Assembly (NCBI GenBank): GCA_902788415.1
Contig: CADAKF010000014.1
Coordinates: 1-54,299 of the forward strand
Length of the DNA: 54,299 nt
Direction: 5' to 3'
Origin: an uncultured bacterium
Lineage (GTDB): Bacteria; Verrucomicrobiota; Kiritimatiellia; RFP12; UBA1067
Position 1 is the stretch's first letter. Each line of letters starts with the position of its first letter. The translations under genes and the position numbers were made by a program. Shown one piece after another: positions 9,160 to 51,447 of the stretch. The notes beneath the pieces are model-generated. The model saw only the letters and a list, made by a program, of their open reading frames with translations. It did not search any database and had not been told where the DNA came from.

Positions 9160-9636
9160 ATGGCAAAGAAGGTCAAGGATCCGCGTCCGAGCTGGGACGA
9201 ATACTTCATGGACATCGCGGCGGTCGTCGCGAAAAGATCCAATTGCTCGCGTCGCTCGGTCGGCGCCGTGATCGAACGCAACCACCACATTCTCTCCGCT
9301 GGCTACAACGGCACTCCGAAGGGCGTGAAGAACTGCTTCGAGGGTGGCTGTCCGCGTTGTGCCGGGAAGGTGAAGAGCGGCACACATCTCGACGAGTGCC
9401 TCTGCACGCACGCCGAGCAGAACGCGATTTGCCAGGCCGCGTGCTACGGGTTGCCGATCGACGGCTCAACCATTTATGTCACAATCTCGCCGTGCCTTAC
9501 CTGTGCGAAGCTGATTATCAACGCGGGCATCAAGGAGGTCGTCTACGGCGGCGACTACGCCTTTCTCGACACGGTCAAGAAGATGTTCAAGGCGGCCGGC
9601 GTAAGACACCGGAAGTACAGAAGTTTGAAGGTTTGA
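9160..9636 (+). CDS. dCMP deaminase (ComEB-type)
   Basis: 'SWDEYFM', 'HAEQNA' and 'PCLTCAKLI' zinc-binding deaminase motifs. The stop lies inside the octamer array. Confidence 0.85.
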   Translation: MAKKVKDPRPSWDEYFMDIAAVVAKRSNCSRRSVGAVIERNHHILSAGYNGTPKGVKNCFEGGCPRCAGKVKSGTHLDECLCTHAEQNAICQAACYGLPIDGSTIYVTISPCLTCAKLIINAGIKEVVYGGDYAFLDTVKKMFKAAGVRHRKYRSLKV

Positions 9637-9706
9637 AAGTTTGAGAGTTTGAAAGTTTGAGAGTTTGAAAGTTTGAAGGTTTGAAAGTTTGAGAGTTTGA
9701 AAGTTC
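9623..9706 (+). repeat. 8-bp tandem array GTTTGARR x10.5
   Basis: Read directly. Spans the cdd stop and the cdd-tpiA spacer. Confidence 0.95.
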
Positions 9707-9728
9707 AATACAAGCAAAGGAAAACAAA

Positions 9729-10493
9729 ATGAGCAGGAAGAAAATCATTGCTGGTAACTGGAAGATGAACGTGAAGCCGTCCGAGACCGCGGCTCTCATC
9801 AAGGCCGTCGCCGAGGCGACGGCGCAGTTCGGCGACAAGGTCGAGATCGTGTGCTGCACGCCTGCGATCGACGTCCCGGCCGCCGTTGCGGCCGCCGCGG
9901 GCACGAAGGTCGGCGTCGGCACGGAGAACTGCCACTGGGAGGATCACGGCGCGTTCACCGGCGAGATCTCGACGGGCATGATCGTCGATGCGGGCGCGAA
10001 GTACGTCATCACCGGCCACAGCGAGCGTCGCCAGTACTTCGGCGAGACGGACGAGACGGTCAACAAGCGCACGCGCGCCGCGATCGCCGCGGGCCTCACC
10101 TGCATGATGTGCGTCGGCGAGACGCTCGACGAGCGCGAAGCCGGCAAGCTCAACGAGGTGATCGAGCGTCAGATGAACGTCGGCCTCAAGGACGTGACGG
10201 CGGCGGACTGCGCCAAGCTCGTCATCGCCTACGAGCCCGTGTGGGCCATCGGCACCGGCAAGACCGCGACGCCCGACCAGGCGCAGGAGGTCCACGCGCT
10301 CATCCGCGCGACTCTCGCGAAGCTCGTCGGCGCGGAGACGGCCGAGACCGTGCGCATCCAGTACGGTGGCTCCATGAAACCAGGCAACGCGGCGGAGCTC
10401 CTCGCGAAGAAGGACATTGATGGCGGCCTCATCGGTGGCGCGGCGCTCAAGGCCGAGGACTTCGCCGGAATCATCGCGGCGGCGGCCAAGTAA
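9729..10493 (+). CDS. tpiA: Triosephosphate isomerase
   Basis: 'AGNWKMN', 'GHSERR', 'AYEPVWAIGTGKTA', 'YGGS'. Confidence 0.95.
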   Translation: MSRKKIIAGNWKMNVKPSETAALIKAVAEATAQFGDKVEIVCCTPAIDVPAAVAAAAGTKVGVGTENCHWEDHGAFTGEISTGMIVDAGAKYVITGHSERRQYFGETDETVNKRTRAAIAAGLTCMMCVGETLDEREAGKLNEVIERQMNVGLKDVTAADCAKLVIAYEPVWAIGTGKTATPDQAQEVHALIRATLAKLVGAETAETVRIQYGGSMKPGNAAELLAKKDIDGGLIGGAALKAEDFAGIIAAAAK

Positions 10494-10530
10494 GCTGTTA
10501 GCTGTTAGCGGTTAGCTATTAGCGGTTGGC
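10494..10530 (+). repeat. 7-bp tandem array (GCTGTTA-type heptads x5), single arm
   Basis: gctgtta gctgtta gcggtta gctatta gcggttg, immediately after the tpiA stop. Confidence 0.9.
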
Positions 10531-10545
10531 GTGAAGAGGAGTTGT

Positions 10546-11178
10546 ATGCGATATTCGATTATTCGATTATTCGATTATTCGATTATTTCTCTCGCGCTTT
10601 GCGCGACGGGCTGCTTCAACGAGCCGGAGCCGGCGTACAAGTCGGTTCCGGCCGAGAACCGCGTCTATCTGAGTGACAAGGGACTAAAGGACCTTAAGTC
10701 TTGCGCTGCGCTTAGAAGCGGAAAGGATTCCGCTTCCCCCCTCGGGATGGATTACCTCAACCTCGACCGCAACCAGCTGACGAACGTCGATGCGGTTGCG
10801 AAGCTTGAGGGGCTCAAGTGGCTGCGGCTCAACGACAACAGGTTGTCCGCGCTGCCGGACCTGAAGGGACTCGTCAACCTCCGTCGCATCTACCTGAAGA
10901 ACAACGGCTTCAAGGCGGTGCCGGAGACGTTGAAGGACCTGCCGGCCCTGACCGACATCGACCTTTCGGGCAATCCGCTCAAGGAGGTGCCGGCGTGGCT
11001 CGCGGAGAAGAAGGGGCTCAAGAACCTTTCCTTCTCGCGGACGCAGGTCTCGAAGCTTCCGGAGAATCTTGAGGCGTGGAAGTCGCTCCAGTCGCTCCAG
11101 CTCGGGGACTTGAACATCTCCGCGGCGGAAATGGCGCGAATAAGAAAAGCGCTCCCAAATGTCGCAATCGTCTTCTAA
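10546..11178 (+). CDS. Leucine-rich-repeat lipoprotein
   Basis: Lipobox-like 'SLALCATGC' followed by repeated LxxLxLxxNxL units. GAGGAG lies upstream of ATG 10546. Confidence 0.7.
   Translation: MRYSIIRLFDYSIISLALCATGCFNEPEPAYKSVPAENRVYLSDKGLKDLKSCAALRSGKDSASPLGMDYLNLDRNQLTNVDAVAKLEGLKWLRLNDNRLSALPDLKGLVNLRRIYLKNNGFKAVPETLKDLPALTDIDLSGNPLKEVPAWLAEKKGLKNLSFSRTQVSKLPENLEAWKSLQSLQLGDLNISAAEMARIRKALPNVAIVF
10553..10588 (+). repeat. 8-bp tandem repeat ATTCGATT x4.5 inside the signal-peptide coding region
   Basis: Read directly; encodes 'YSIIRLFDYSII'. Confidence 0.95.
10699..10743 (+). repeat. Full copy of the palindromic in-frame element
   Basis: tcttgcgctgcgcttagaagcggaaaggattccgcttcccccctc; translated 'SCAALRSGKDSASPL'. 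Confidence 0.9.
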
Positions 11179-13763: not shown

Positions 13764-14954
13764 ATGAAGGCGAAGACGTTCATCGACCAGGTCGAGGTTC
13801 TCGTCCGCTCCGGCAAGGGCGGCGACGGATCCTGTTCCATGCGCCGCGAGGCCCTCGTCATCATGGGCGGGCCGGACGGCGGAGACGGCGGCCGGGGCGG
13901 TGACGTCGTCTTCAAGGCGTCGGAACACGTCAACTCGCTCCTTTCGCTCTACTACGACCCGAAGTGCTTCGCGCAGGACGGCGAGCCGGGCAAGGGGCAG
14001 AAGATGTTCGGCAAGCGCGGCAAGGATCTTGTCATCCCCGTGCCGCTCGGAACCGAGGTTTACGACGCCGACACGGACCTTCTCATTGCGGACATCACCG
14101 AGCCGGGCCAGTCGGCCGTCGTCGCGAAGGGCGGCGCCGGCGGGTTCGGCAATGTCCACTTCAAGAGCTCCGTCAACCAGGCGCCGACCGAGCACACGCC
14201 CGGCGGCCCCGCGGAGGAGAAGCGCGTCCGTCTGGAGCTGAAGACCATTGCGGACGCGGGTCTTCTCGGCTTTCCGAACGCAGGCAAAAGCTCGCTCCTG
14301 TCGGTCTTGTCGTCCGCGACGCCGAAGATCGCGTCCTATCCCTTTACGACGCTGAATCCCGTCGTCGGCACGATTGTCTACGACGACTACGCGAAGATTC
14401 GCATGGCGGACGTCCCGGGCATCATCGAGGGCGCCGCGAAGGGCGTCGGGCTCGGCCTTGCGTTTCTGAAGCACCTCGAACGTTCGAAAGTGCTCGTCTA
14501 CGTCATTGATATGGCGGGAACGGACAACCGCGAGCCGTGGACGGACTACGAGATCCTGAAGAAGGAGATCTCCGAGTATTCCGTCGAGCTCGCAGAACGT
14601 CCCCATCTCATTGTCGCCAACAAGATGGATACGCCGGAAGCGCAGGAAAACCTGCCGCGGTTTGTGAAAGAGACCGGAATACGGCCGATTGAGGTTTCTT
14701 GCGCTTCGCTTGCAAGCGGAAAGGATTCCGCTTCTCCACTGCGGGACGGCTTGGATGTATTCAAGGACGAACTTCGGAAGATCGTCCAGCCGAAGACGAA
14801 GTTCCACCATACGCATGCCGAGACGCCGGACCTGAAGGACATGCCGGACACGTCGGGGGACGAGCTGCCGCCGGGCGCGCTCAAGTTCGCGACTTTCCTC
14901 AAGCTCGAAAAGCCGAAGGAAAAGACCCATCCCTCCCGCGGAAACATCCACTAA
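13764..14954 (+). CDS. obg: GTPase Obg/CgtA
   Basis: 'GKGGDG', 'GGDGGRGG', 'GFPNAGKSSLL', 'DVPGIIEGA', 'NKMD'. Confidence 0.95.
   Translation: MKAKTFIDQVEVLVRSGKGGDGSCSMRREALVIMGGPDGGDGGRGGDVVFKASEHVNSLLSLYYDPKCFAQDGEPGKGQKMFGKRGKDLVIPVPLGTEVYDADTDLLIADITEPGQSAVVAKGGAGGFGNVHFKSSVNQAPTEHTPGGPAEEKRVRLELKTIADAGLLGFPNAGKSSLLSVLSSATPKIASYPFTTLNPVVGTIVYDDYAKIRMADVPGIIEGAAKGVGLGLAFLKHLERSKVLVYVIDMAGTDNREPWTDYEILKKEISEYSVELAERPHLIVANKMDTPEAQENLPRFVKETGIRPIEVSCASLASGKDSASPLRDGLDVFKDELRKIVQPKTKFHHTHAETPDLKDMPDTSGDELPPGALKFATFLKLEKPKEKTHPSRGNIH
14697..14740 (+). repeat. Full copy of the palindromic in-frame element (in obg)
   Basis: tcttgcgcttcgcttgcaagcggaaaggattccgcttctccact; translated 'SCASLASGKDSASPL'. 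Confidence 0.9.
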
Positions 14955-19428: not shown

Positions 19429-19765
19429 TCTGTATGCAACGGTCAATGAGCACTCGTTGAAACGATTTTGTGCTATAATACTCTTGTCCTGTGAAAGTCG
19501 GGATGATCCGAAGTCGGCTCTCACCACCTCCAAGCGGGACAAAGAACGCGTAACCACGCGGACTTGATCGTTCTGATGAAACGTCCAAACTTCTGAAACG
19601 AGCGACATGTCCTGCGAGGGGCGCGCATGGCTGAACAATCAGCCGGGCGTGTCTCTTTGCACCCATGTTTTCGTTTCGGGCTTTGGACGGCCTCATCAGA
19701 GATCACGGGTGAAGGAGGCACGCCCGCTCTATTTGTCTCTGTGCGAGTATGGTGTGGAGGTGTCG

Positions 19766-22204
19766 ATGAAGATTAAATGCAAGAAATGCGGCGAGGTGAT
19801 TGTCGTAGCGGACGATATTGTCCCAGGGCAGCACGTTCGTTGCCCGTATTGCGACGAAAAGTTTGCATATGATGTTGAAAAGGTCGGGATATCTGGCGAA
19901 GATTTACGTACGGCGCTTGCAGAATGTCGCAAGGATAAGGAACTCAACGCTTATTACAAAAATGCGCCGCTGGGAGCGCGTCTGTATATTGCGCTCGTGT
20001 TTTACGGTAAGGTTTTCCGAGATGCGCTTGACAAGGATGCGTACGTAAAGGCGTTTGCGGAAATTGGCGGAGAGCTTAAGGAGCGGGATTTGCGGTATCT
20101 TCTGCAACACGAGGATGATGAGTCCATGCGCGAGTACCTCTCTGACAGGTTGGCAGCATCGGTTGGCAGAAGTGATGACCCCATTAGGGCCGGAGATGCC
20201 AAGGGACGCTCCAGGTTCGGGATAATTCGACCATCTGTGCCAAAGCATGCCGATGTCAATCCCGAAGTTGAAAGAAGGATGGCGATTCAAGAGCGGAGTG
20301 AGAAAACCCGTGTGCAAGCAGAAGAATGCGAATGGCGCAGGAAGATAATCGGCTCGGCCGTGAACGGCGTGATCATTTGCGCTGTCCTAATTGTCGGATG
20401 GATTGTTTACTTGGCATGGCACGACAGGCAGGTACAGGCGCGGCGAGAACGTCTTGAGGCGGTCCAAGCCGAGAAAGAACGCGAGGAGAAAGAGAAGCAG
20501 GAGCGTGACAGGCAGGAGGCGGAAGAGCGTGCCAGACAGGACCGTGAACGGGCTGAACGTCTTGAGCGTGAACAGAAGGAGCGCGTGGAGCGCCGTCGGA
20601 TTGCGGCGGAAGACGAAGAACGGCGAAAGAAAATCGACGAGGAGAACCGGATCCGTGAGGAGGCGGAGAAACGGCAGGAAGAGTATCGTGACATCGTTGT
20701 TTCATTGAGCGACCGTGAACTTCTTCGCGAGGTGACTTTGCCTGAGAAAATGCGCCCTGGAAGGGCTGTACGCAAGTTCCTTTGCATGTTGCCCGTAGAT
20801 CAGGATGAATTTGTACTTTACGAAGTCGAGACTGATGCCGAGGGGAAAACGGTGGCAGTGGCGCTCTCTGGGGAGAAAGGTCGCGAACAGGTTGATTTTC
20901 AAGAATTGAAGAAACGGATCGAAAAAACAGGATGCATTTTCTGTGATAACGAAAAGGCCTATTTTCGCCCGAGGAAGGCGAAGAGACCCAATGAGTTCCA
21001 AATGCCTGTGGATTCACAGGTCTTTGAGCCGTGGAATGCCATGTTTGGAGAGATGTTGCCTGTCATCAAGAAATTCAACTTCAGATGCAACGTCTTTGCG
21101 CTCGATGTGTTTATGCTGCAAAAGGGTGAAGATGCCGTGAAGGTCACCCGACTCGAGCCATTTGATGCTGTCGCGCTGTCGCAATTCAAGGATATCGTAC
21201 GCCAGGATCTGCTTGAAAGGAAGGGCGCCGCAGCAATGAAGCGCCCGATTAAGATCAAGAGGCCCGTGATAACTGTCAAATTGTACGATGGGGATATTGT
21301 CAAGAAGGATGCGCGGGGCAACACATATGTTCCGCGCGAGTTCCCACAGCCGAAAGGATATTCCAATTTCAGGCCGCATAACTACTATGATGGACGGATC
21401 TGCAATTGCGGTTTGTGCAAAAAATACCGTTCGTGGGAGGATTTGCGCGACGAAGCCGTCAAGCAAGAGAGAGCTGTGGCCGAGTACGAGGTGGAAATAG
21501 AAAACGCCAGGGAGAGGAGGCGGAACGCGGTGAGAGTTTCCGACGACGAAGTTGACGCTATACTCAAAAAATTACGTGTACGAGTTGTCTATGCCAAGGA
21601 GCAGATTGATGATGCGAACGAAGAAGAGGGCTTTGGGGCGATAACTCCGCAAGTAAAGTCGCCGGAGGTTGGATGTGCGAGTGGAAGCGTGACGGACGAG
21701 TTGTCAGCGGTGGGAATTGCGCGGCTCAATGCCCGGCTTAAGTACAGGAGCTTCTGCGGGATTGAGTTCGGGATGGTGGAAGAGCGTATTGATCCGTGCA
21801 ATGGACGAGGCGGCGATTTGCCGACGGCATTCAGGCATTTCAAATCCTATTCAAAGTACGGCTCAAAGGTTTTTCATCGTGTTGCGAAAATTGATTTAAA
21901 CGGGAAGATAACAAATGCGAGTATTGACAGCTTCAAGAAGGAAATTCGGCAGACGGTTGCCGTCCTTTCAAAGAAATATGGCATGACCTTTGACGTTGTC
22001 AAAGAGTCGGACGAACGTTTTGCGATGGGATTCGAAGATCAATATGTCAATGTTGTAGTCGGTGGATATTATTCCAATGGCGAGGCGTCGTTCTACATCG
22101 GATTCACCAATAAGCAAGTTGACGAGCAAAATGACGCAATCTGGTCGCGGCATCCTGGCAAGGATATCAGTATGCCGAGTAATGCTGGGCTTGATGTGTT
22201 GTAA
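19766..22204 (+). CDS. Orphan 812-aa protein: MJ0042-type zinc ribbon + single TM helix + ER/K-rich coiled coil + uncharacterised C-terminal domains
   Basis: 'MKIKCKKCGEVI..VRCPYCDEKF', TM 'IIGSAVNGVIICAVLIVGWIVYLAW', about 110 aa of E/R/K repeats. GGAGG precedes ATG 19766. Confidence 0.6.
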   Translation: MKIKCKKCGEVIVVADDIVPGQHVRCPYCDEKFAYDVEKVGISGEDLRTALAECRKDKELNAYYKNAPLGARLYIALVFYGKVFRDALDKDAYVKAFAEIGGELKERDLRYLLQHEDDESMREYLSDRLAASVGRSDDPIRAGDAKGRSRFGIIRPSVPKHADVNPEVERRMAIQERSEKTRVQAEECEWRRKIIGSAVNGVIICAVLIVGWIVYLAWHDRQVQARRERLEAVQAEKEREEKEKQERDRQEAEERARQDRERAERLEREQKERVERRRIAAEDEERRKKIDEENRIREEAEKRQEEYRDIVVSLSDRELLREVTLPEKMRPGRAVRKFLCMLPVDQDEFVLYEVETDAEGKTVAVALSGEKGREQVDFQELKKRIEKTGCIFCDNEKAYFRPRKAKRPNEFQMPVDSQVFEPWNAMFGEMLPVIKKFNFRCNVFALDVFMLQKGEDAVKVTRLEPFDAVALSQFKDIVRQDLLERKGAAAMKRPIKIKRPVITVKLYDGDIVKKDARGNTYVPREFPQPKGYSNFRPHNYYDGRICNCGLCKKYRSWEDLRDEAVKQERAVAEYEVEIENARERRRNAVRVSDDEVDAILKKLRVRVVYAKEQIDDANEEEGFGAITPQVKSPEVGCASGSVTDELSAVGIARLNARLKYRSFCGIEFGMVEERIDPCNGRGGDLPTAFRHFKSYSKYGSKVFHRVAKIDLNGKITNASIDSFKKEIRQTVAVLSKKYGMTFDVVKESDERFAMGFEDQYVNVVVGGYYSNGEASFYIGFTNKQVDEQNDAIWSRHPGKDISMPSNAGLDVL

Positions 22205-24324: not shown

Positions 24325-24327
24325 GCA

Positions 24328-24394
24328 GCTTTTAGCGGTTAGCTGTTAGCTATTGGCTTTGGACACTAACCGCTAACCGCTAACAGCTAACCGC
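24328..24394. terminator. Inverted repeat built from AGCTGTT/AACAGCT-type heptads (prs-pth spacer)
   Basis: Left arm gctttta gcggtta gctgtta gctattg; right arm ctaaccg ctaaccg ctaacag ctaaccg; 8-nt loop. Confidence 0.6.
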
Positions 24395-24398
24395 GACA

Positions 24399-24971
24399 AT
24401 GAGAATCATCGTCGGACTGGGGAATCCTGGAGCCCAATACGCCAATACTCCGCACTCGGTTGGTTTTGAGGCGGTCGATGCAATCGCTTCGGAGATTGGC
24501 GCGAGTTGGGAGGAGAAGCGTCAGTTCAAGTGCCTGTGGGCGAAGGGGAATTTCGCCGGACAGTCCGTCATCCTTGCAAAGCCCCAGACCTACATGAACC
24601 TCTCCGGCGAGTCGGTCGCCCCGCTCGTTAGGTATTCGAACGCGACCGCAGCAGATCTCCTTGTCATTCAAGACGACATCGACCTGCCGGTCGGGCGGAT
24701 GCGCGTCAGGAAGAACGGCTCCTGCGGCGGACACAACGGCATCCGCAACATCATCGAGCGTCTCGGCACGCAGGATTTTGCGCGTCTTAAGCTCGGGGTC
24801 GGCAAGGACAAGAGCGATGTCATCGCGCATGTCCTCGGCAAGTTTGACCCGGCGACGCGCCAGACGATGGACCGGGTGGTGGCCGAGGCGGTCAAGGCCG
24901 CTGCGGCGATTCTCCGCGACGGTCCCGACCGCGCGATGAACGCCTACAACGGATGGAGTACGGATGGCTGA
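24399..24971 (+). CDS. pth: Peptidyl-tRNA hydrolase
   Basis: 'GLGNPG', 'TPHSVGF', 'GGHNGIRNI'. Confidence 0.95.
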   Translation: MRIIVGLGNPGAQYANTPHSVGFEAVDAIASEIGASWEEKRQFKCLWAKGNFAGQSVILAKPQTYMNLSGESVAPLVRYSNATAADLLVIQDDIDLPVGRMRVRKNGSCGGHNGIRNIIERLGTQDFARLKLGVGKDKSDVIAHVLGKFDPATRQTMDRVVAEAVKAAAAILRDGPDRAMNAYNGWSTDG

Positions 24972-26011
24972 ACTCAATGAGACACCGCGGGGAAACCGCA
25001 TCCATATCGCGTTCTTCGGGCTGAGGAACGCGGGCAAGTCAACGCTTGTCAATGCGTTTACGGGACAGCAGATCGCCATCGTGAGCGACGTTCCGGGAAC
25101 TGCGCGTCGAGCAGTCGCTCAAGGTGCTGGAGACGACGGATATTGCGGTCTGGGTGGACGGCGACGCGTCTTCATTGAAGCGGAAAGGATTCCGCTTCTC
25201 CACTTTTGAGGATGAGTGCAAGAAACGGAATGTGATTCTGCTCGAATATCGGCGAGGCGACTCGGTTGAGGCGCTGAAGCGGAAGATCGCCGCTGTGAAG
25301 CTCGACGAGACGCCGCCGGAGCTGCTGGACGGGCTGGTGCAGGCCGGCGACCGAGTTGTTTGCGTCGTTCCGATCGACGAGTCCGCCCCCAAGTCGCGGC
25401 TGATCCTGCCGCAGCAGCAGGTCATCCGTGAATGCCTGGACCGGCACTTGTCCTGTCTCGTCTGCCAGCCTGAGGAGCTGGAGCCGACATTGGCGATGGC
25501 GGCGAAGGCGGCGGGCGGGGAGACGCTGGTCGTGACCGACTCCCAGGCCTTTGGCGCCGTCGGCCGGGTGGTCGCGGGGTTTCGCGAGGCGAGCGGGCGA
25601 AGCGTCCGGCTGACCTCCTTCTCAATCCTCTTTGCTCGACAGAAGGGCGACATCGCCGCCTACTTGGAGGGTCTGAAGGCGATTCTGGCGCTGAAGGACG
25701 GCGACGCGGTGCTGATCGCCGAGGGCTGCACGCACCATCGCCAGTGCAACGACATCGGTTCGGTGAAGATTCCGCGGGCCCTTGCGAAGATGACTGGGAA
25801 GAGCCTGAAGTTCGAGTTCTCCAGCGGGACGGCGTTCCCCCTGCCCATGGGTCGCTTCTCGCTCGTCGTCCAGTGCGGCGGCTGCATGCTGACCCGGCGC
25901 GAGGTCCTGCGGCGCATCGGCGCGGCGCGGGAGGCCGGCGTGCCGATTGTCAACTACGGCATGCTGCTGGCGGCGGCGAACGGAATGAGGGTCGAAGACG
26001 TGCTCGCATGA
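24964..26011 (+). pseudogene. hydF: [FeFe]-hydrogenase maturation GTPase HydF, internal deletion plus frameshift
   Basis: N-terminus 'IAFFGLRNAGKSTLVNAFTGQQIAIVSDVPGT' (G1) stops matching at about 25097. The next frame resumes 'ELRVEQSLKVLETTDIAVWV' and runs to the C-terminal 'CTHH..CGGC' cluster-binding domain. The G2/G3 region is missing. Confidence 0.75.
25168..25204 (+). repeat. Copy of the palindromic element lacking part of the 5' half, read in a different frame
   Basis: tcttcattgaagcggaaaggattccgcttctccact; translated 'SSLKRKGFRFST'. Confidence 0.85.
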
Positions 26012-27627: not shown

Positions 27628-30114
27628 ATGTCGAGAGACCTGATGCCATTTCCCGTTGAGGAGAAGATCGACGAGGTTGCCGCGGCGCTCGCGAAGAATC
27701 GCGACGTGGTGCTGACGGCGCCGCCCGGCAGCGGCAAGACGACGTGCGTGCCGCCGGCGCTCCTCGACGCGCCGTGGCTCAAGGGCAAGAAGATTGTGAT
27801 GCTCGAGCCGCGGCGGCTCGCGGCACGGAACTGTGCGGCGTATATCGCAAAGAGGCGCGGCGAAGCGATTGGCGAGACGGTTGGGTTTTCCGTCCGGCTC
27901 GAGCGCAAGGTCTCTGCAAAGACGCGGCTCGAGGTCGTGACGGAGGGGCTCCTGACAAACCGGATTCTCGGCGACCCCGAGCTGAAGGACGTTGGACTTG
28001 TGATCTTCGACGAGTTTCACGAGCGGTCGCTTCAGTGTGACCTGGCGTTTGCGCTGGCGCTGGAGGTGCGACGGGCGCTCAGGCCCGATTTGAGAATTCT
28101 CGTCATGTCCGCGACCTTGGACGCCGACGAGGTGGCGGCGCATCTCGGCGATGCGGACATCGTGCGTGCCGAGGGTCGGATGTTTCCGGTGGAGACCGTG
28201 TATCTCGGCGACTTGCCGATGTCCGCGGCGATTTCAAAGGCGCTGAAGGAGACGGAGGGGGATATTCTGTGCTTTTTACCGGGGGAGTCCGAAATAAGGA
28301 GGGTGAGAGAATCTTGCGCTTCGCTTACAAGCGGAAAGGATTCCGCTTCCCCACTCTTTTTGCCGCTCTACGGCAGCTTGCCGAAGGAAGAGCAAGACAA
28401 GGTGTTTTCCGCTGTTCAACCTTCAACCTGCAGCCTTCAACCTGCACCACGAAGAGTGGTGCTGGCGACGTCGATTGCGGAGACGTCGGTGACAATTGAG
28501 GGGATTACGTGCGTCATCGATTCGGGACTGATGCGGGTGCCGCGGTTCTCGCCGTCGACGGGGATGTCGGGACTGGTGACGCTTCCGCTGACACAGGACC
28601 GCGCGGAGCAACGGCGGGGCCGTGCGGGACGCGTGAGGGCGGGTGTCTGCTATCGTCTTTGGACCGAAGGACAGCAGCAGTCCCGTCCGAAGCGGATGAT
28701 GCCGGAGATCCTCGAGACGGACCTTTGCTCGCTCGTCTTGACAAGCGCGGCGTGGGGGGCGCTTGGGCGTGAGGACTTGCCGTGGATGACACCTCCGGCT
28801 GTGAGCCTGTGGGATCAAGCGGTCGGGCTTCTGAAGATGCTGGGCGCCTTGGACAAGGACGGACGACTGACGGCGAAGGGCGAGAAGATGGCGAAGCTCC
28901 CGATGCATCCGCGGCTGGCAAACATGCTTCTCGCCGCGGGCGCGAACCATGAATCGGAGAAAAGAGGTGGAGGTGGAGAACGCGGCGTGGCCGTTCTGGC
29001 TGCAATCATTGAGGAGGGCTCAAAAAGCCGCGAGACCGATATTCGGTATGTTCCCGTCACCCCTCGAGTCAAAGAACTGTCTAAGAGATTTGCGTTCCAT
29101 TGCTCACCTACACCTCACACCTTCACCTTGAGCGCCGGAGGCGCTCTTGCTCTCGCGTATCCCGACAGAATTGCCAAGAACAGGGGGAACGGGACGTTCC
29201 GGATGGTGAACGGGCGGGGCGCGTTCCTGCCGGAGGACGATCCGATGGCGAAGGAGCCGTACATTGTCTGCTGCGAACTCGACGACCGGGCGGGAGATGC
29301 GAAGGTCTTTCTCGGGTGTCCGATCGCGGAAGAGGAGATAGTGGAGCTGTTCGGGGACGAGATCGCCGAGGAGCCGTACTGTGCCTGGGATCGGCAGAAC
29401 GAGCGGGTGAAGTGCGTCGTACGGCGCAAGCTCGGCGAAATGACGCTGGGGGAGCGGATTTTAAACACAGAGACGCAGAGACACAGAGAAGGGATTGAAA
29501 AAGCGTTGTTGGAGGGAATCAGAGTCAAAGGCGTCGAGAATCTCCCGTGCTGGACGAAAGACACGCTGCAGCTCAAGTCTCGAATCAATTTTCTTTCCAA
29601 ATCCTCTGTGTCTCAGTGTCTCTGTGTTGAAAATCCATGGCCGAAAATTGACGCTGCGACGTTGCTGCCGGCGATGGAGGGGTTTGTCGGGGGAATGGCG
29701 AAGTGGCGGGACCTGGAAAAGCTGGATATTGCCGCGGTGATGGACTTCATCTTGTCCGAGGCGGGGCATGACCGGCGGGAGCTTGACCGGCTGGCGCCGA
29801 CGCGGATGGAGGTGCCGAGCGGGAGTCACATGACGATTCACTACGAGGGTGACGAGCCGACGGTGAAAGTGCGGCTGCAGGAGTGCTTTGGACTGATGGA
29901 GACGCCGAAGGTAGCGGGCGGAAAGGTGCCGATCGTGATGACGCTTCTGAGCCCGGCGCAACGTCCAATCCAGATCACCAAGGATCTGGCTGGATTCTGG
30001 AAGGGGGCGTATCAGCTGGTCCGCAAGGACATGCGCGGACGCTATCCGAAGCATTACTGGCCGGAGGATCCGTTTGCTGCCGTCGCGACCCGGCGAGTTC
30101 GTCCCAAGGTATAG
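27628..30114 (+). CDS. hrpB: ATP-dependent RNA helicase HrpB
   Basis: 'APPGSGKTT', 'DEFHERS', 'SATLD', 'TSIAETSVTIEGI', 'QRRGRAGR' and the HrpB C-terminal domain. Confidence 0.9.
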   Translation: MSRDLMPFPVEEKIDEVAAALAKNRDVVLTAPPGSGKTTCVPPALLDAPWLKGKKIVMLEPRRLAARNCAAYIAKRRGEAIGETVGFSVRLERKVSAKTRLEVVTEGLLTNRILGDPELKDVGLVIFDEFHERSLQCDLAFALALEVRRALRPDLRILVMSATLDADEVAAHLGDADIVRAEGRMFPVETVYLGDLPMSAAISKALKETEGDILCFLPGESEIRRVRESCASLTSGKDSASPLFLPLYGSLPKEEQDKVFSAVQPSTCSLQPAPRRVVLATSIAETSVTIEGITCVIDSGLMRVPRFSPSTGMSGLVTLPLTQDRAEQRRGRAGRVRAGVCYRLWTEGQQQSRPKRMMPEILETDLCSLVLTSAAWGALGREDLPWMTPPAVSLWDQAVGLLKMLGALDKDGRLTAKGEKMAKLPMHPRLANMLLAAGANHESEKRGGGGERGVAVLAAIIEEGSKSRETDIRYVPVTPRVKELSKRFAFHCSPTPHTFTLSAGGALALAYPDRIAKNRGNGTFRMVNGRGAFLPEDDPMAKEPYIVCCELDDRAGDAKVFLGCPIAEEEIVELFGDEIAEEPYCAWDRQNERVKCVVRRKLGEMTLGERILNTETQRHREGIEKALLEGIRVKGVENLPCWTKDTLQLKSRINFLSKSSVSQCLCVENPWPKIDAATLLPAMEGFVGGMAKWRDLEKLDIAAVMDFILSEAGHDRRELDRLAPTRMEVPSGSHMTIHYEGDEPTVKVRLQECFGLMETPKVAGGKVPIVMTLLSPAQRPIQITKDLAGFWKGAYQLVRKDMRGRYPKHYWPEDPFAAVATRRVRPKV
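28312..28356 (+). repeat. Full copy of the palindromic in-frame element (in hrpB)
   Basis: tcttgcgcttcgcttacaagcggaaaggattccgcttccccactc; translated 'SCASLTSGKDSASPL'. Confidence 0.9.
28414..28448 (+). repeat. Heptad array gttcaac cttcaac ctgcagc cttcaac ctgcacc in hrpB
   Basis: Read directly; encodes 'VQPSTCSLQPAP'. Confidence 0.85.
29103..29130 (+). repeat. CACCT-rich low-complexity tract in hrpB (complement of the GGTGARG family)
   Basis: ctcacctacacctcacaccttcaccttg; encodes 'SPTPHTFTL'. Confidence 0.7.
29464..29628. repeat. Inverted pair of CACAGAGA-type arrays flanking about 110 nt of native hrpB coding sequence
   Basis: Left aacacagagacgcagagacacagagaagg (29464-29492); right cctctgtgtctcagtgtctctgtgtt (29603-29628). 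Confidence 0.85.
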
Positions 30115-42187: not shown

Positions 42188-42927
42188 TTTCCCGTGCCAT
42201 TGACGCGGGTCGCGCCGCACACGGCTATCTCGTCGTCGGCGATCTGAAGGGCGGATGCGATGTCCTGACGGACCGCATTCTCAGAAAGCTTTTCCCAGAG
42301 GAGGTCGCGCAGGTTGAGGCGAAGTCGCACCCGGACATCGCCTGGCTTGAGCCGGAGGGCGCGAAGCGCATCATCAAAGTGGAGTCCATGCGCGAGCGGA
42401 TCGTTGAGCCGATGTCGCTCGCGGCGTTCTCCGGCGGATGGAAGGTCGGTGTGATCGTCGGCGCGGATCGGATGGAGGCGCCGAGCGCGAACGCCTTCCT
42501 CAAGTCCCTCGAGGAACCGACGCCGAAGACGCTCTACCTGATGCTGACGGATCAGCCCGATGCGATCCTGCCGACGATCGTCTCGCGCTCCCAGCGCATC
42601 GACCTGCCGCTTTCCGAAGGCCTTCTCGAAGGCGAGGACTACAACGCCGTCTCGGAGCTTTTCGCGGCAAAAGACGCCGCGGGGCTCGCCGCAAAGCTTG
42701 CCGAGCTGAAGGACGGCGCAGACGACGCGGACGCGCAGCTTGCCCGCAAGCGGTTTTTCAAGACGCTCATGAGCTTCGTCCGCCAGCTGATGCTGTCGGA
42801 GAAGATCCCGCGTCACCAGGCCTTCCGCAATGTCGAGGCGGTCGAGGACGCCTACCGCCAGTCCGAGCGCTCGATGAACGACGAGGCTGTCCTCTCCTTC
42901 CTTCTGGACAGGATTCGGTTCTCATGA
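42160..42927 (+). CDS. holB: DNA polymerase III subunit delta'
   Basis: 'HGYLVVG', 'ANAFLKSLEEP' and 'TIVSRSQ' motifs. GGAGG precedes ATG 42160. Confidence 0.75.
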   Translation: MEIDEAFSLISRAIDAGRAAHGYLVVGDLKGGCDVLTDRILRKLFPEEVAQVEAKSHPDIAWLEPEGAKRIIKVESMRERIVEPMSLAAFSGGWKVGVIVGADRMEAPSANAFLKSLEEPTPKTLYLMLTDQPDAILPTIVSRSQRIDLPLSEGLLEGEDYNAVSELFAAKDAAGLAAKLAELKDGADDADAQLARKRFFKTLMSFVRQLMLSEKIPRHQAFRNVEAVEDAYRQSERSMNDEAVLSFLLDRIRFS

Positions 42928-43808
42928 AGTTCTCCCTGTCCACGAACTGGTGCAACCGGCGAATCGAGTCCGGACGCGAAATCGCCGAGAAGGCGAGGGA
43001 GCTCGGTTTTGACGAACTTGAGCTCGGTTTCCACACGACGGCCGTGCAGGCGAAGGAAATCGCTGCACTCCGCGATGCGATTCCCGTTGGCAGCATTCAC
43101 GCGTTCTGCCCCGTGCCGATCAGCGCGCCGCAGGGCTATCCCGAGCTCTATCTTCTTGCGGACTTTGACGACGAAACGCGCAAGATGGCGCAGATCCACG
43201 TCCGTCGGAACATTTTCTTTGCCGCGGAAACAGGGGCGGACACGGTCGTGCTGCACGCGGGGCGGGTGATGTGCCGAGGCTTCCTGCGCCGGTGGGATAT
43301 GAAACGCCGCGTCAGCCGTGGGCGGAAGATGCTCGACGTCTTCAAGAAGGAGCTTGCTGCCCTCGTTCCCGTTCTCGAACAGACGAAGGTTACGCTCGCT
43401 CTCGAGAACCTTCCCTACCTCGAGGGCTTTCCGGCGGAATGGGAGATCGGCGAACTGGTCGGAGACTGGGTGAAGCCGTGGCTCGACACGGGGCATGACT
43501 TCGTGAGACGGGCGAATCGGTGGACTGTTCCGTTTTTAACGAGCGGAAAGGATTCCGCTTCTCCGCTCTTACAGCCCGTTGGCCTGCACATCAGCGATTC
43601 GCTTGGTGAAGACGACCATCTTGCGCCGGGCGCGGGAAAGGTCGACTTCGCCGCCCTCGGGGACATGGCGCGGCAGGCGCGGCATCTTGTCTTCGAACCG
43701 AACCCCGGCGTGACCGAAGAGGAACTCAAGAAGGGCCTGGCCTTTATCCGGGAGCTTTGGTCGCCCCAGAAGGCCACGCCGGACTCCGATCGCCAAACGC
43801 TCAGCTAA
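42924..43808 (+). CDS. Sugar phosphate isomerase/epimerase (xylose-isomerase-like TIM barrel)
   Basis: 'GFDELELG', 'VVLHAG', 'LALENLP'. ATGA overlap with the holB stop. Confidence 0.65.
   Translation: MKFSLSTNWCNRRIESGREIAEKARELGFDELELGFHTTAVQAKEIAALRDAIPVGSIHAFCPVPISAPQGYPELYLLADFDDETRKMAQIHVRRNIFFAAETGADTVVLHAGRVMCRGFLRRWDMKRRVSRGRKMLDVFKKELAALVPVLEQTKVTLALENLPYLEGFPAEWEIGELVGDWVKPWLDTGHDFVRRANRWTVPFLTSGKDSASPLLQPVGLHISDSLGEDDHLAPGAGKVDFAALGDMARQARHLVFEPNPGVTEEELKKGLAFIRELWSPQKATPDSDRQTLS
43541..43568 (+). repeat. Core copy of the palindromic in-frame element
   Basis: gagcggaaaggattccgcttctccgctc; translated 'TSGKDSASPL'. Confidence 0.85.
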
Positions 43809-43824: not shown

Positions 43825-46800
43825 ATGACGCAGATTCCAAAAACAGAAGACTTTCTCCTCAAGTGGCGCGGCGACACGCTGACCGTGACACTGAAGCTCG
43901 ACGCGCCGCGCAAGGGTCGCGCCGCATTTCGCACCAACATCGGGCACGCGTCGATCCGCCGCCGCGAGATCATCGATGAGACCGAGAAGGGCCTGACGCC
44001 GCTCGCGAAGGCGTGGACGGACATTCCGCTCAAGGAAGTGTCGCCGGGGCTTTTCAGGGCGGACATCCGCCTGGATGAAGTCGGCGTCTTCTCCGGCAAG
44101 GCCTGTTTCTTTCCCGAGGGGTCGCATGTGCCCGAGTGGCCCGAGGGCCGCAACACGCACATCAAGGTCGAGAGCGGCGAGACACGCGCGGGTAACTCGA
44201 TCTACTGCGTCTTTCCGCGGCAGTTCGGCTCGTTTCGCGAGGTCATCCGGCGGCTCCCGCTCATCATGGACACGATGGGCTTCCGGATCGTCCAGACGCT
44301 GCCGCCGTTCCCCGTGCCGACGACCTACGCGGTGATGGGCGAATACGGCTGTCCGTTCGCGGCGACCGACTTCCTTTCCGTCGATCCGGCCATGGCCGAG
44401 TTCGACGAGCGTGCGACGCCGCTTGACCAGTTCAAGGAGCTGATCGGCGCCGTTCACGCGCGGAACGGGCTCATGCTGATCGACCTCCCCGCAAACCACA
44501 CGGGCTGGGCGTCGACGCTGCAAACGCATCATCCGGAGTGGTTTCACCGTCGGGACGACGGCAGGTTCGTGAGTCCCGGCGCCTGGGGCGTCACCTGGGC
44601 GGATCTCGTCGAGCTCGACTATTCGAATCCCGAACTGCGGACCTACATGGCGGACGTCTTCCTCTTCTGGTGCCGCCTTGGCGTGGACGGCTTCCGGTGC
44701 GACGCCGGCTACATGATTTCCGCCGAGACATGGGAGTACATTGTCGCCAAGGTGCGCGAGGAGTATCCCGACACGATCTTCATGCTCGAGGGCCTCGGCG
44801 GCAGCCTCGAGACGACGGACCGCCTGCTCGCCGAATCCAATCTTGACTGGGCCTATTCCGAGGTCTTCCAGACCTACGACCGCGGACAGTTCGAGTGGTA
44901 TCTGCCGAATGCGATTGCGCGCGCGGAAAAATACGGCGCGCTCGTCCACTTTGCCGAGACGCACGATAACGACCGTCTCGCGAAGGGCGGCGAGACCTAT
45001 GCGAAGCTGCGCGTCCAGCTTGCGGCGCTCCTTTCGTGGCAGGGCGCCTGGGGCATCGCCAATGGCGTCGAGTGGTTCTGCACGGAAAAGATCGATGTGC
45101 ATGGCAAGAACGGGCTCAATTGGGGTGCGGACCGGAATATGGTCGGACTCATCGCCAGGCTCAACGGGATCCTACGCACGCATCCGTCATTCACCGGACC
45201 TGGACGGCTCGAAGTCGTCACGCGCGGCGACGGCAACACACTCGCCGTTGTCCGCCATGCCGACAACATCTGCGATTCGCTGCTCGTTCTCGCCAATCTC
45301 GACTGCTGCCATCCTGCGCAAATCGACTGGGCGCGTCCAAAATACGATCATTCAGAGACATTTGACGTCCTGAGCGGACGCAAGGTCTGCGCTGCCGGTC
45401 CTGTCGAGCTCGGGCCGGGAGAGGTCCTTTGCTTGCGCACGGCGGAAAGTCCAGACGCCCGCGCAGTCCGACCGGAGATTCCGAAGCCGGCCCGAGAGCC
45501 GCTTTTCCACATCGTCATGCCGCGCGATGCAAAACGCGATGTCGTCGTTCCGGAAGGGCAGCTGGTCGAAGTGTCTGCACCGACCCGTTTCCGCGTGCGG
45601 CTCGTCGATCCCGAGACCGGCAAGACGGTCCGCGTTCGGCGTTCGGACGATGCCAACCGCGCCATCTTCGACGCGCCACACTACCACGGCGATGGCGGGC
45701 GGTGTCGCGCCCTGCACCTGGACGTGGCCATCTATCGGGACGGTCGGGCCGAGCAGATGCGCTCGCGCTTTCTTGTGCCGCCGCCGGCGCGCAAGGCGAA
45801 GATGCGACTGTCTCTCTCCGGCGAGGAGGTCCGTTGCGCACCGAACGGCCGGACGGTCCTCTCCAACGGCGCAGGCGCCGCGGCGCAGGTGCGCGTCGGC
45901 TGGGGCGAGATCCGCTCGCAGTACGACGCCTTCCTCGCGGCAAACCCGAATCCGTCCGTGCCATCCGACCGCCTGAACCTCTGGGCGCGCACACGCTGCT
46001 GGTTGCAACGCGAGGGTTATACGCGCGAGCTGGACAAGAAGTGTGTGACGCGCTTCACGGCCGATCCGGCGGGACGTTTCGCTCGCTGGGAGTTCGCGGT
46101 TCCCTGCGGCATGGGCAAGGAGACAGCCTTTGTCTTCACCCTGTCTCTCGCGGAAAAGGCGAACGCGGCGACGCTTGCGGTCGAACGTGTCGCCGCAGTG
46201 GCGCGCGACGTCGGCGACCAGGTGCGTCTCGTGTTTCGTCCCGACATCGAGTGGCGCAGCTTCCACGCGACAACCAAGGCCTACCGTGGACCCGACTCGC
46301 TCTTTCCGAAGAGCTCCGTGCCGACGACCGGCGGATTTGCCTTCTCTCCCTACGGCGAGACGTTCACCATGTCCGTCGATGGCGGCGAATATCACCACGA
46401 GCCGCAATGGTGTTACAACGTCGGACATCCCGAGGAGGCGGCGCGCGGCCAAGACGGCTCGGGCGACCTCTTTTCGCCCGGATGGATCTCGGCAGACCTC
46501 AAGGTCGGCGAGACCTGCAAGATTGTCGCCTCTCTTGGTGAATCCCCGTCTCCCACGTCTTCCGTCTCAAGTTCTAAAACGCCTCCCGCGCAGGACTCTC
46601 GACGAGAGACGAAAGACGTGATCGGTTTTGCCGATTCACTTCGCCGCTCGCTTGAGCTCTACATTGTCCGCCGCGATGACCTGAAGACCGTCATCGCGGG
46701 CTATCCCTGGTTCCTTGACTGGGGACGCGACACGTTTATCTTCATGCGGGGCATGATCGCCGCCGGGATGACGGACGACGCGCTCAAGATCTTGCAGGCA

Positions 46801-47742
46801 TTTGCCGCGTTCGAGGAGAACGGGACACTTCCGAACATCATCTACGGCAAGACCGCCGGCAACCGCGACACGACTGACGCGCAGCTCTGGTTCGTCCGCT
46901 GCGTACAAGAAATGTTTGAAAGTTTGAACGTTTCAAGGTTTGAAGGTTCGGGGGATAAACTCTCAAACTCTCAAACCCTCAAACATTCAAACCTTTTCAA
47001 AACCTGCGAATCAATTGTCGACAACTACATCAAGGGGACTCCGAACGGAATCCACATGGATCCTGAGTCTGGCCTCGTCTGGTCGCCGTCGCATTTCACC
47101 TGGATGGACACGAACTATCCGGCCTGCACGCCGCGCGTCGGCTACCCCGTCGAAATCCAGGCGCTCTGGATCAGTGCGCTCAGGTTCCTTGGCCGCGACG
47201 AACTTGCGGCAAAGGCGCAGGTCTCGCTCGAAAGGCTCTTCAAGTGGGAGTTTGGCTATCGCGACTGCCTGGCGGCGCCGCACGGAGAGCCGGCAGCACA
47301 GGCGATGCCGGAGGATACGATCCGTCCGAACCAGCTCTTCCTCATCACGTTGGGCGTCCTAAAAGACAAGTCGATCCTGCGCGCGACGGAAGAGCTGCTC
47401 GTGCCGGGCGGTGTCCGCTCCCTGAACGCGCTGCATCCGCTTTACCGCGGCATTTATGCGGGCGACGAGAATACGGCGAGAAAACCCGCCTATCACAACG
47501 GCACGGTCTGGGCGTGGCCGTTTCCGCTCTATGCGGAGGCGCTTGTCGCGGCCGGGGCCTGCACGAAGGACGTCGCGCTCTCGCTGCTCGCCGGTGCGGT
47601 CGAAAACCTGAACACGGGCTGCCTCTGTCATTTGAGCGAAAACGCTGACGGCGATGCGCCGCACGCGCAGAAGGGTTGCACGGCCCAGGCCTGGAGCGAC
47701 TCGGAGCTTCTACGCGTCTGGTTGAAGCTCGGTGGCAAGTAA
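43825..47742 (+). CDS. 1305-aa fusion: GH13 alpha-amylase-family catalytic domain + amylo-alpha-1,6-glucosidase (GDE C-terminal) domain
   Basis: GH13 regions 'DLPANH', 'GFRCDAGYM', 'FMLEGLGG', 'FAETHDN'. C-half 'GYPWFLDWGRDTFI' and 'WMDT' are typical of glycogen debranching enzymes. Confidence 0.8.
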   Translation: MTQIPKTEDFLLKWRGDTLTVTLKLDAPRKGRAAFRTNIGHASIRRREIIDETEKGLTPLAKAWTDIPLKEVSPGLFRADIRLDEVGVFSGKACFFPEGSHVPEWPEGRNTHIKVESGETRAGNSIYCVFPRQFGSFREVIRRLPLIMDTMGFRIVQTLPPFPVPTTYAVMGEYGCPFAATDFLSVDPAMAEFDERATPLDQFKELIGAVHARNGLMLIDLPANHTGWASTLQTHHPEWFHRRDDGRFVSPGAWGVTWADLVELDYSNPELRTYMADVFLFWCRLGVDGFRCDAGYMISAETWEYIVAKVREEYPDTIFMLEGLGGSLETTDRLLAESNLDWAYSEVFQTYDRGQFEWYLPNAIARAEKYGALVHFAETHDNDRLAKGGETYAKLRVQLAALLSWQGAWGIANGVEWFCTEKIDVHGKNGLNWGADRNMVGLIARLNGILRTHPSFTGPGRLEVVTRGDGNTLAVVRHADNICDSLLVLANLDCCHPAQIDWARPKYDHSETFDVLSGRKVCAAGPVELGPGEVLCLRTAESPDARAVRPEIPKPAREPLFHIVMPRDAKRDVVVPEGQLVEVSAPTRFRVRLVDPETGKTVRVRRSDDANRAIFDAPHYHGDGGRCRALHLDVAIYRDGRAEQMRSRFLVPPPARKAKMRLSLSGEEVRCAPNGRTVLSNGAGAAAQVRVGWGEIRSQYDAFLAANPNPSVPSDRLNLWARTRCWLQREGYTRELDKKCVTRFTADPAGRFARWEFAVPCGMGKETAFVFTLSLAEKANAATLAVERVAAVARDVGDQVRLVFRPDIEWRSFHATTKAYRGPDSLFPKSSVPTTGGFAFSPYGETFTMSVDGGEYHHEPQWCYNVGHPEEAARGQDGSGDLFSPGWISADLKVGETCKIVASLGESPSPTSSVSSSKTPPAQDSRRETKDVIGFADSLRRSLELYIVRRDDLKTVIAGYPWFLDWGRDTFIFMRGMIAAGMTDDALKILQAFAAFEENGTLPNIIYGKTAGNRDTTDAQLWFVRCVQEMFESLNVSRFEGSGDKLSNSQTLKHSNLFKTCESIVDNYIKGTPNGIHMDPESGLVWSPSHFTWMDTNYPACTPRVGYPVEIQALWISALRFLGRDELAAKAQVSLERLFKWEFGYRDCLAAPHGEPAAQAMPEDTIRPNQLFLITLGVLKDKSILRATEELLVPGGVRSLNALHPLYRGIYAGDENTARKPAYHNGTVWAWPFPLYAEALVAAGACTKDVALSLLAGAVENLNTGCLCHLSENADGDAPHAQKGCTAQAWSDSELLRVWLKLGGK
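46545..46620. repeat. In-frame hairpin module of the CGTCTYC/GRGACG family in the GDE gene
   Basis: cacgtcttccgtctc (46554-46568) pairs 14/15 with gagacgaaagacgtg (46606-46620). Encodes 'SPSPTSSVSSSKTPPAQDSRRETKDV'. Confidence 0.8.
46914..47004. repeat. In-frame inverted repeat of GTTTGARR octamers in the GDE gene
   Basis: Left arm gtttgaaa gtttgaac gtttcaag gtttgaag. Right arm is the complement (ctcaaac units). Encodes 'FESLNVSRFEGSGDKLSNSQTLKHSNLFKT'. Confidence 0.9.
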
Positions 47743-49966: not shown

Positions 49967-50551
49967 ATGAGAAAAGCCAAAATCGCGCGGAATACGAAGG
50001 AAACGCAAATTAAGCTCGAGTTGAACCTGGACGGATCCGGCAAGGGCTCAATCGACACCGGTATTGGGTTCTTTGACCACATGCTGGAGCTCCTGAAGAA
50101 GCATGCGCTCATCGACTTGACGGTCAAGGCCAAGGGGGATCTCAAGGTCGATTACCACCACACGGTTGAGGACGTGGGACTCGTCTTCGGGCAAGCCCTC
50201 GACAAGGCGCTCGGGGACCGCAAGGGGCTGACGCGCTACGGCTTCGCCTCGATCCCGATGGACGAGGCCCTGTGCGAGACCTCGCTCGATCTCGGGGGGC
50301 GTCCGTTCCTCGTGATGCAGTGCGCGATGAAGCACATGATGGTGAAGGATTTTGAGGTAAAACTCGTGGAAGAGTTTTTCCGCGCGGTCTCCGTCGAGAG
50401 CCGGTCGAACATCCATCTCCGCCAGATTTATGGCGACGAGGCGCATCACGTTTGCGAAGGGCTCTTCAAGAGCTTTGCGCGCGCGCTCCGTGCGGCGAAA
50501 GCCATCGATCCGAAAGAAAAGGGGATTCCAAGTTCAAAGGGGGTCATTTAG
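49967..50551 (+). CDS. hisB: Imidazoleglycerol-phosphate dehydratase
   Basis: 'RNTKETQI', 'GIGFFDHML' and 'HH..E' motifs. Confidence 0.95.
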   Translation: MRKAKIARNTKETQIKLELNLDGSGKGSIDTGIGFFDHMLELLKKHALIDLTVKAKGDLKVDYHHTVEDVGLVFGQALDKALGDRKGLTRYGFASIPMDEALCETSLDLGGRPFLVMQCAMKHMMVKDFEVKLVEEFFRAVSVESRSNIHLRQIYGDEAHHVCEGLFKSFARALRAAKAIDPKEKGIPSSKGVI

Positions 50552-50647
50552 CTGTTAGCTCTTGGCCGTTAGCTGTTAGCGCAAGAGGACAAGGAAACAA
50601 ATGCCAACAGCTAACAGCTAACAGCTAATCGCTAAAAGCTAAAAGCT
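50551..50647. terminator. Long inverted repeat of AGCTGTT/AACAGCT heptads (hisB-hisA spacer)
   Basis: Left arm 50551-50582, 20-nt spacer, right arm 50603-50647 (gccaaca gctaaca gctaaca gctaatc gctaaaa gctaaaa). Confidence 0.6.
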
Positions 50648-51373: not shown

Positions 51374-51379
51374 CAATAG

Positions 51380-51446: not shown

Positions 51447-51447
51447 T

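Follow-up and report, generated by a model that had tools for sequence, protein, structure and literature searches.

A REP-like hairpin module that recurs in frame inside unrelated genes of an uncultured gut Kiritimatiellia bacterium

The Rickettsia palindromic elements (RPEs) are the classic case of palindromes inserted in frame into genes (Ogata et al. 2000, reviewed in PMC10969869). Di Nocera et al. 2013 described repetitive extragenic palindromic (REP) sequences with GTAG or CGTC tags, among them the families GTAG-17 to GTAG-20 of Opitutus terrae, in which about 70 open reading frames (ORFs) hold REP singles or dimers in frame, with a fixed reading per family and a DEAH helicase among the hosts; GTGG is the majority tag of GTAG-20 (PMC3733652). 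In this study, we analyzed a stretch of 54,299 nucleotides from an uncultured Kiritimatiellia bacterium (contig CADAKF010000014.1; hereafter, the window) in which a first-pass annotation, made from the sequence alone, had noticed a palindromic module of about 45 bp repeated in frame in seven unrelated genes. That annotation knew of no precedent other than the RPEs, which overlooked the in-frame REPs catalogued in O. terrae and other species (PMC3733652). We favor, with moderate confidence, a reading in which the module is a non-autonomous hairpin family of the REP type, or of the type of REP doublets forming hairpins (REPINs), that belongs to a clade of gut Kiritimatiellia, would be mobilized by a REP-associated tyrosine transposase (RAYT) and may be tolerated by its hosts as translated loops.

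The recurrence of the module is far beyond chance. A search of the window for the core GAAGCGGAAAGGATTCCGCTTC, allowing up to 3 mismatches, returned 7 matches, against 0.00 expected from 100 shuffles, and a 30-nt fragment comes in addition, so the report of seven near-identical copies is borne out. Six matches lie on the + strand and start at 10715, 14713, 25177, 28328, 43540 and 52115. The remaining match is degenerate and on the - strand (52066-52087), with 27 nt between it and the + copy that follows at 52115; it had been overlooked in the earlier list, and the copy in the M16 peptidase gene is thus an inverted doublet. The core is a 22-nt palindrome, GAAGCGGAA-AGGA-TTCCGCTTC, and a 5' leader, TYTTGCGCTTCGCTT, is found at 8529, 10699, 14697 and 28312.

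We assembled 36 copies from the window and ~15 related contigs to define the anatomy of the unit. Read on the sense strand, it consists of a pyrimidine-rich lead-in, a 9-bp stem (GAAGCGGnn/nnCCGCTTC), an RGGA loop (AGGA in 31/36 copies and GGGA in the other 5) and a YCCNYT tail. On the antisense strand the layout is a tag, one base, the 9-bp stem and a TCCT loop (GTGG-g-GAAGCGGAA-tcct-TTCCGCTTC), with the tag more loosely RNGG: GTGG in 12 copies, ATGG in 6, ACGG in 5, GCGG in 5, GGGG in 3 and other tetranucleotides in 5. The stem around AGGA that had been proposed is confirmed by covariation. Bases pair in 95% of stem cells, changes on both sides number 9 and 11 at the two apical pairs, and none of 500 shuffles reached the observed covariation score, which is 0.222 (0.053 in shuffles). 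The apical pairs are AA/TT in 25 copies, TC/GA in 5, AC/GT in 2, CG/CG in 2, TG/CA in 1 and TT/GA in 1, and while they covary, the RGGA loop and the tail stay fixed. No Rfam family matches the hairpin.

The unit occurs in three forms: bare, with a 17-nt leader (the 45-bp form first described), and as an inverted doublet. Hairpin and 3' tail are the mobile core of the proposed 45-bp module; its 5' segment is a leader that only some copies have, and the core is often found in inverted doublets. The latter are ~85-90 nt in all, with tails pointing outward and spacers of 2-31 nt, and were seen in the M16 peptidase gene (in the window and in the related assembly L006), in the glycogen-debranching-enzyme (GDE) gene of three conspecific assemblies (L020-22), in a PFL-like gene (L018) and in L002, L004 and L011. 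Folded, the doublet in GDE gives a near-perfect hairpin of ~35 bp (-61 kcal/mol, z -13). Doublets have terminal inverted repeats of at least 14 nt (AAGTGGAGAAGCGG...) and single units have none. In every doublet, GEAxSxPLQ is the reading of the reverse unit and SGxxxASPL/F that of the forward unit. As first noted, no sense frame contains a stop codon; core and tail are in fact free of stops in all six frames, and the type-A leader brings one antisense stop. A composite form, in which the module is interrupted by a second 45-nt palindrome, recurs in two different genes and, being present in two unrelated genes, appears to have been copied as a nested whole. It lies at ~5640-5700 of L025 (HrpB) and at residues ~880-910 of the protein P0315, with the 3' arm region interrupted and the peptide SGKDSPRIAPASQLASLGGYASPL.

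Comparison of filled and empty sites demonstrates that the module is an inserted nucleotide element rather than an ancestral peptide. Obg orthologues with 86-88% identity have 385 aa and an empty site (ISC-ESRE-GLE), and filled forms are 394-397 aa long, for example SC-ASLASGKDSASPL-RD-GL and SC-GSSGSGQETASPF-GL. In the window Obg the unit stands directly after the native 'SC' of the G5 region, where the 385-aa orthologues have ESRE, and the net gain is 11 aa. On each of 50 bootstrap neighbor-joining trees, no fewer than 7 changes between the filled and the empty state were needed, compared with ~24 when states were shuffled, which argues that this site has been repeatedly gained, lost or exchanged. 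An AlphaFold model of Obg (mean pLDDT 39) is too poor to place the insert and shows low confidence over residues 313-325.

Presence and absence also differ within the species. The three conspecific assemblies, at 97.6-99% nucleotide identity to the window, have a perfect 85-nt doublet in the GDE gene (43825-47742, + strand), and the window has unrelated sequence at this polymorphic site (45260-45499): a divergent patch of ~240 bp ends exactly at the right edge of the doublet. The idea that the window allele is a decayed doublet was rejected because the similarity is not significant, 192 of 1000 shuffles scoring equally. Conservation acts on the nucleotides themselves, as third codon positions of HrpB in the window and in L012 are 93% identical inside the module and 65% identical gene-wide. 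The empty Obg sites, a variable site in HydF (below), the strain difference and this conservation above the synonymous background together uphold the original view of an RPE-like module placed in frame in unrelated genes. Searches of genomes, metagenomes and a representative protein library found no distant taxa with the peptide at these positions on divergent DNA, and the copies are not mostly intergenic or random in strand and frame.

All window copies lie inside + strand ORFs with Pfam-supported or conserved products; the Pfam and protein-cluster look-ups also support the host identities first proposed (membrane protein, leucine-rich-repeat (LRR) protein, Obg, HrpB, TIM barrel and M16). Location in coding sequence is thus confirmed for every window copy, though by itself it is not significant (~0.9^7), because the window is ~87-90% coding, with genes mainly on the + strand. 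At 8529-8558, a truncated type-A unit of 30 nt comprises the leader (TTTTGCGCTTCGCTTAG), the 5' arm and the AGGA loop without 3' arm or tail, the 5' half recognized earlier. It belongs to a 537-aa conserved membrane protein (7536-9149) and is read FCASLRSGKD between two hydrophobic stretches; 40 of the 40 cluster members listed or read (at least 90% identity) are about equal in length. Full type-A units (leader, hairpin and tail) are found at 10699-10743 in an LRR lipoprotein gene (10546-11178; read SCAALRSGKDSASPL), at 14697-14741 in the Obg gene (13764-14954; read SCASLASGKDSASPL) and at 28312-28356 in the HrpB gene (27628-30114; read SCASLTSGKDSASPL). Type-C units, with the pyrimidine-rich lead-in, hairpin and tail, occupy 25167-25206 in a HydF-like gene (24964-26011; read KRKGFRFST) and 43530-43569 in an AP_endonuc_2/xylose-isomerase-like TIM-barrel gene (42924-43808; read TSGKDSASPL). 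The REPIN-like inverted doublet at 52057-52145 lies in the M16 peptidase gene (51448-52710) and consists of a degenerate reverse unit (52057-52087, REAKSLPHQ), a 27-nt spacer and a forward unit (52115-52145, SGKDSASPL); its RNA fold has -40.9 kcal/mol (z -3.4), and an orthologous doublet is present in L006 (MAG256).

Six of the 7 window copies are read ..SGKD(SASPL).., the HydF copy at 25177 (KRKGFRFST) being the exception, and this single-frame bias is significant (p ~0.02); across genomes, ~12 of 16 distinct sites use the SGKD frame (p ~8e-4). The frame claimed at first therefore stands as a bias but not as a rule, for the same DNA takes two other readings in real genes of other genomes: KRKGFRFS in RibF and EAERIPLL in a family-5 solute-binding protein (SBP_bac_5). 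Likewise, a sense bias is real but exclusive sense orientation is not, given one antisense copy in a Ser/Thr kinase of another genome, the reversed units of doublets and some copies elsewhere in probably non-coding sequence. For the six host proteins checked, nearly every member listed in the 90% clusters is of equal length, a few being truncated or slightly longer, which indicates that these copies are fixed in the species and do not reflect an assembly artefact. Such an artefact is ruled out in any case, since dozens of independent assemblies from ENA, Logan and NCBI have the same copies. Removal of the segment as an intein, as an intron or by translational bypass was set aside because the segment maintains the frame and contains no stops, and because Obg and HrpB would lose needed residues.

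The HrpB and HydF sites are hot spots at which the module is one filler among several. In HrpB, the copy lies in a RecA2 loop, between EIRR and LPLYG, that is hypervariable in orthologues: at 70-83% identity it is filled by this module, tandem 7-8-mers, other hairpins or almost nothing. Since the fillers vary and the sequence of the E. coli HrpB structure is only 4 residues shorter there, the module occupies a variable loop rather than forming a clean addition. Insertion as originally described is thus supported by relatives with an empty Obg site but does not extend to clean insertion, because two Obg codons were replaced and the HrpB loop holds other fillers elsewhere. In L013 the HrpB loop (10628-10730) contains a hairpin, GCAGAGTGC-AGACA-GCACTCTGC, followed by (ATCAGGG)x5, all in frame, and the peptides of other HrpB orthologues suggest tandem octamers there too, such as (AATGTTNG)n. 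Elsewhere in the window HrpB gene, 29456-29488 and 29604-29636 form an in-frame 33-nt inverted repeat, 91% complementary with its arms 115 nt apart, built of CACAGAGA-like octamers; relative to E. coli HrpB, the arms are insertions of 3 and 6 aa.

At the N-terminal HydF site, the window and L025 have this unit (in L025 within an intact HydF orthologue and in the window's frame), L012 has another palindrome and L013 has a true GTAG-tagged REP doublet. The REP is in frame, GTAG-GGCGGCGAG-tcct-CTCGCCGCC, and has the layout of the module's antisense strand. A C-terminal HydF site is filled in L012, L024 and L025 and empty in the window and L013. The HydF-like gene of the window has lost ~34 codons, including the GTPase G2/G3 region, and has a frameshift near 25100 relative to intact orthologues of 387-391 aa; it is probably a pseudogene or encodes a truncated protein in this strain. 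True GTAG-tagged REPs in the related genomes are found at 7491-7570 of L013 (the in-frame HydF doublet, peptide RAASPLAAAARPESAPYR) and at 7415-7445 of L025; the second of them sits just past the HrpB stop codon, the classic REP position.

How did the module come to occupy these genes? By analogy with REP systems, hairpin DNA in single-stranded form would be copied by a genome-encoded HUH tyrosine transposase of the RAYT or IS200-IS605 type, and homologous recombination may also move copies between strains. Insertions in surface loops would be tolerated, translated and inherited, as suggested by the absence of stop codons and by the small polar peptide, SGKDSASPL, that the commonest frame encodes. 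Copies that disrupt a protein would be purged, and we propose that this purging accounts for the bias in frame and orientation.

Several observations weigh against this scenario. Neither GTAG nor CGTC occurs as a tag in any of the 36 copies, no junction, when set against empty sites, shows the target-site duplication that marks MITEs together with terminal inverted repeats, and no constant flanking sequence was seen around the copies. In both HrpB and Obg the unit stands in place of native codons (two in Obg) instead of being cleanly added, and it directly adjoins a native 'SC' (TCYTGC) with the same bases as the start of the leader. The variable positions of the tail coincide with third codon positions, which implies that part of the conservation is at the protein level. 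A tblastn search of 285 kb of sequence with six RAYT/TIRYT proteins of PMC3733652 detected no RAYT/Y1 transposase (nothing at E<0.2), a result that says little because such genes are single-copy. A high copy number, such as the hundreds per genome extrapolated at first, is unproven: the exact 20-mer is found in 1-3 copies per related metagenome-assembled genome (MAG), a scan of a metagenome collection for it gave 2 matches, one of them by chance in a FliD motif, and the peptide is found in 9 cluster representatives of 1.8 billion proteins, at least one of which is unrelated and of low complexity, in a library that holds one protein per 50% cluster. Apart from two chance matches, the 20-mer is confined to Kiritimatiellia/Verrucomicrobia MAGs, and in ~63 kb sampled from the window's species there are 8 loci, with every copy intragenic. 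In the related MAGs L002, L003, L004, L007 and L009 the repeat tends to lie near contig ends, a few hundred bases away at most, as if it broke short-read assemblies; the copy counts from MAGs would then be underestimates.

The main rival to transposition is a route without a dedicated transposase, in which new copies arise by template switching primed by microhomology, or by ectopic gene conversion where hairpins stall forks, and homologous recombination spreads the filled alleles between strains and species. Its appeal lies in the junctions, where the left edges in Obg and HrpB are native Ser-Cys codons (TCYTGC) identical to the first bases of the leader, and where native codons are replaced with no target-site duplication; on these grounds, microhomology-guided copying fits as well as transposition. 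The ~240-bp patch that stops exactly at the GDE doublet, in genomes with 98-99% identity elsewhere, also speaks for this route. Moreover, L024 presents a lineage-wide variant. The TC/GA apex is common to its HydF, HrpB and GH2 copies, the leader-bearing HydF and HrpB copies share the leader variant GCTACGC, and the Obg copy from the same sample (L019) has the TC/GA apex too, whereas AA/TT is found in the orthologous copies of HydF and HrpB from L012 and L025 and in the window HrpB copy. This looks like homogenization, as the rival would have it, or like repeated filling of sites by the dominant variant of the lineage. Homogenization is incomplete, however, since one protein can hold two apex variants (P0317 and P0323), and microhomology is seen at only two sites. 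A conserved asymmetric tail and tag, together with REPIN-like doublets, would furthermore be expected of an element that a protein recognizes. For these reasons we regard copying without a transposase as unlikely, though as the best of the alternatives. Large BspA/LRR-type surface proteins of this clade (P0315, P0317 and P0323) contain 2-4 module copies each, and the apex variants can differ within one of them.

A second alternative is that the hairpin spread by function, as a selected RNA or DNA signal within the mRNA such as a CsrA-like GGA-loop site, a target or stabilizer for an RNase, or a translational pause. An invariant RGGA loop presented on a stem whose top two pairs covary would suit a signal of this kind, as would conservation above the synonymous background over 17-20% gene divergence and the sense orientation of 11 of 12 single-unit sites. 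Yet the doublets put a complementary UCCU loop into the same mRNA, one copy is antisense and others are probably non-coding, the hosts are functionally unrelated, and their orthologues work without the element. One strain-level presence/absence difference comes without other change in the ends of the gene, and Rfam offers no match to the hairpin, such that we consider a selected signal improbable. A related and equally doubtful proposal is that the hairpins are more than passengers and are replaced in situ by homing at existing hairpin sites, or co-evolve with a protein that reads RGGA. It is prompted by the HydF C-terminal and HrpB copies, which switch apex and leader together, and by loops that are re-occupied by other palindromes. 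If it were true, loops in coding sequences would be the maintained habitat of a replicator with a role at the level of the host. Lastly, (S)CASLxSGKDSASPL could be a protein motif, either ancestral or the product of convergent selection, that serves for example in modification or recognition, with the likeness in DNA secondary. One frame is shared by 6 of the 7 window copies and ~12 of 16 distinct sites, and the tail varies at positions 41, 44 and 47, which in Ser-Pro-Leu fall third in their codons. We nevertheless consider this reading very improbable. Close orthologues lack the insert, none of the 36 copies varies at the third positions of AGC, AAG, TCC and GCT, the peptide shifts (GKDS, GQET, GGDA, GEDA) exactly where the stem covaries, and there are real genes that read this DNA in the two further frames or antisense.

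The window contains a second, separate kind of repeat, tandem 7-8-mer arrays, located between genes at 10491-10532, 24327-24394, 50547-50648, 51372-51448 and 53994-54028, with further arrays at 9605-9721, 46904-46995 and 6828-6871. Their units are (AGCTGTT/TTAGCGG)n, (GTTTGARA)n and (GAGGGTGA)n, present in both orientations and pairing into long intergenic hairpins. Separately, an 865-aa ORF at 19607-22204 has no Pfam match and a clearly lower GC content (52-55%, with a GC3 of 0.57 compared with ~0.8 elsewhere), and may be foreign DNA.

If the module is indeed a REP-type hairpin, as we favor, in-frame colonization of conserved genes by such elements now extends to gut Kiritimatiellia. The orthologous sites that are filled, empty or differently filled in many metagenome assemblies constitute an unusually clean natural data set, suited to asking how an element chooses its sites, how proteins absorb 10-30 extra residues and whether copies are homogenized within a genome. 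There are practical consequences as well, in that repeats of this kind break assemblies, with matches clustering at contig ends, and length-variable 'hot-spot' loops can mislead alignment and annotation.

Of the described systems, the REPs of O. terrae are the nearest. Both hosts belong to the PVC group (Planctomycetes, Verrucomicrobia and Chlamydiae), and both sets of elements are stem-loops of 20-40 nt, tagged at one end by a tetranucleotide, occur as singles and inverted dimers, lie in frame in dozens of unrelated housekeeping ORFs and mostly use one frame per family, giving a small peptide rich in Gly, Ser, Pro and Ala (e.g. VAGVADPGPGSASPA). In contrast, the stem and loop sequences of the O. 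terrae families are unlike those of the module, whose tag is never GTAG, with GTGG in just a third of copies, and O. terrae REPs are mostly intergenic, whereas the copies in this species are intragenic throughout the sampled sequence. With the RPEs the module shares palindromes in frame in unrelated genes, extra peptides compatible with the fold and presence that varies between species. It differs in size (RPE-1 is ~100-150 bp, compared with 30-45 bp for the module and 85-90 bp for its doublets), and its host is a free-living gut bacterium rather than a reduced intracellular alphaproteobacterium. The module has no sequence similarity to RPEs, as the first-pass annotation had maintained, and lacks the CGTC tag of the short forms RPE-4 and RPE-6. 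As in the REPIN-RAYT system (Bertels and Rainey 2011, PMC3116915), two inverted units form a longer hairpin, and copies make up a within-genome sequence population with a lineage-specific dominant 'master' and long vertical persistence; unlike REPINs, which are described as extragenic, the module is intragenic and its spacers are short (2-31 nt). Taken together, the module has the short, repeated and dispersed stem-loop and the frequent inverted dimers of a REP, in a layout that fits although the strict GTAG/CGTC terminal tag is lacking, and it has the in-frame insertion into unrelated ORFs with insert-free orthologues that defines RPEs, while its 30-45-nt unit without a CGTC tag places it outside the RPE families by sequence. 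In the literature, no paper mentions the module sequence or its peptide. We class it as a new REP/REPIN-like family that resides inside genes, a behavior already documented in Rickettsia and O. terrae.

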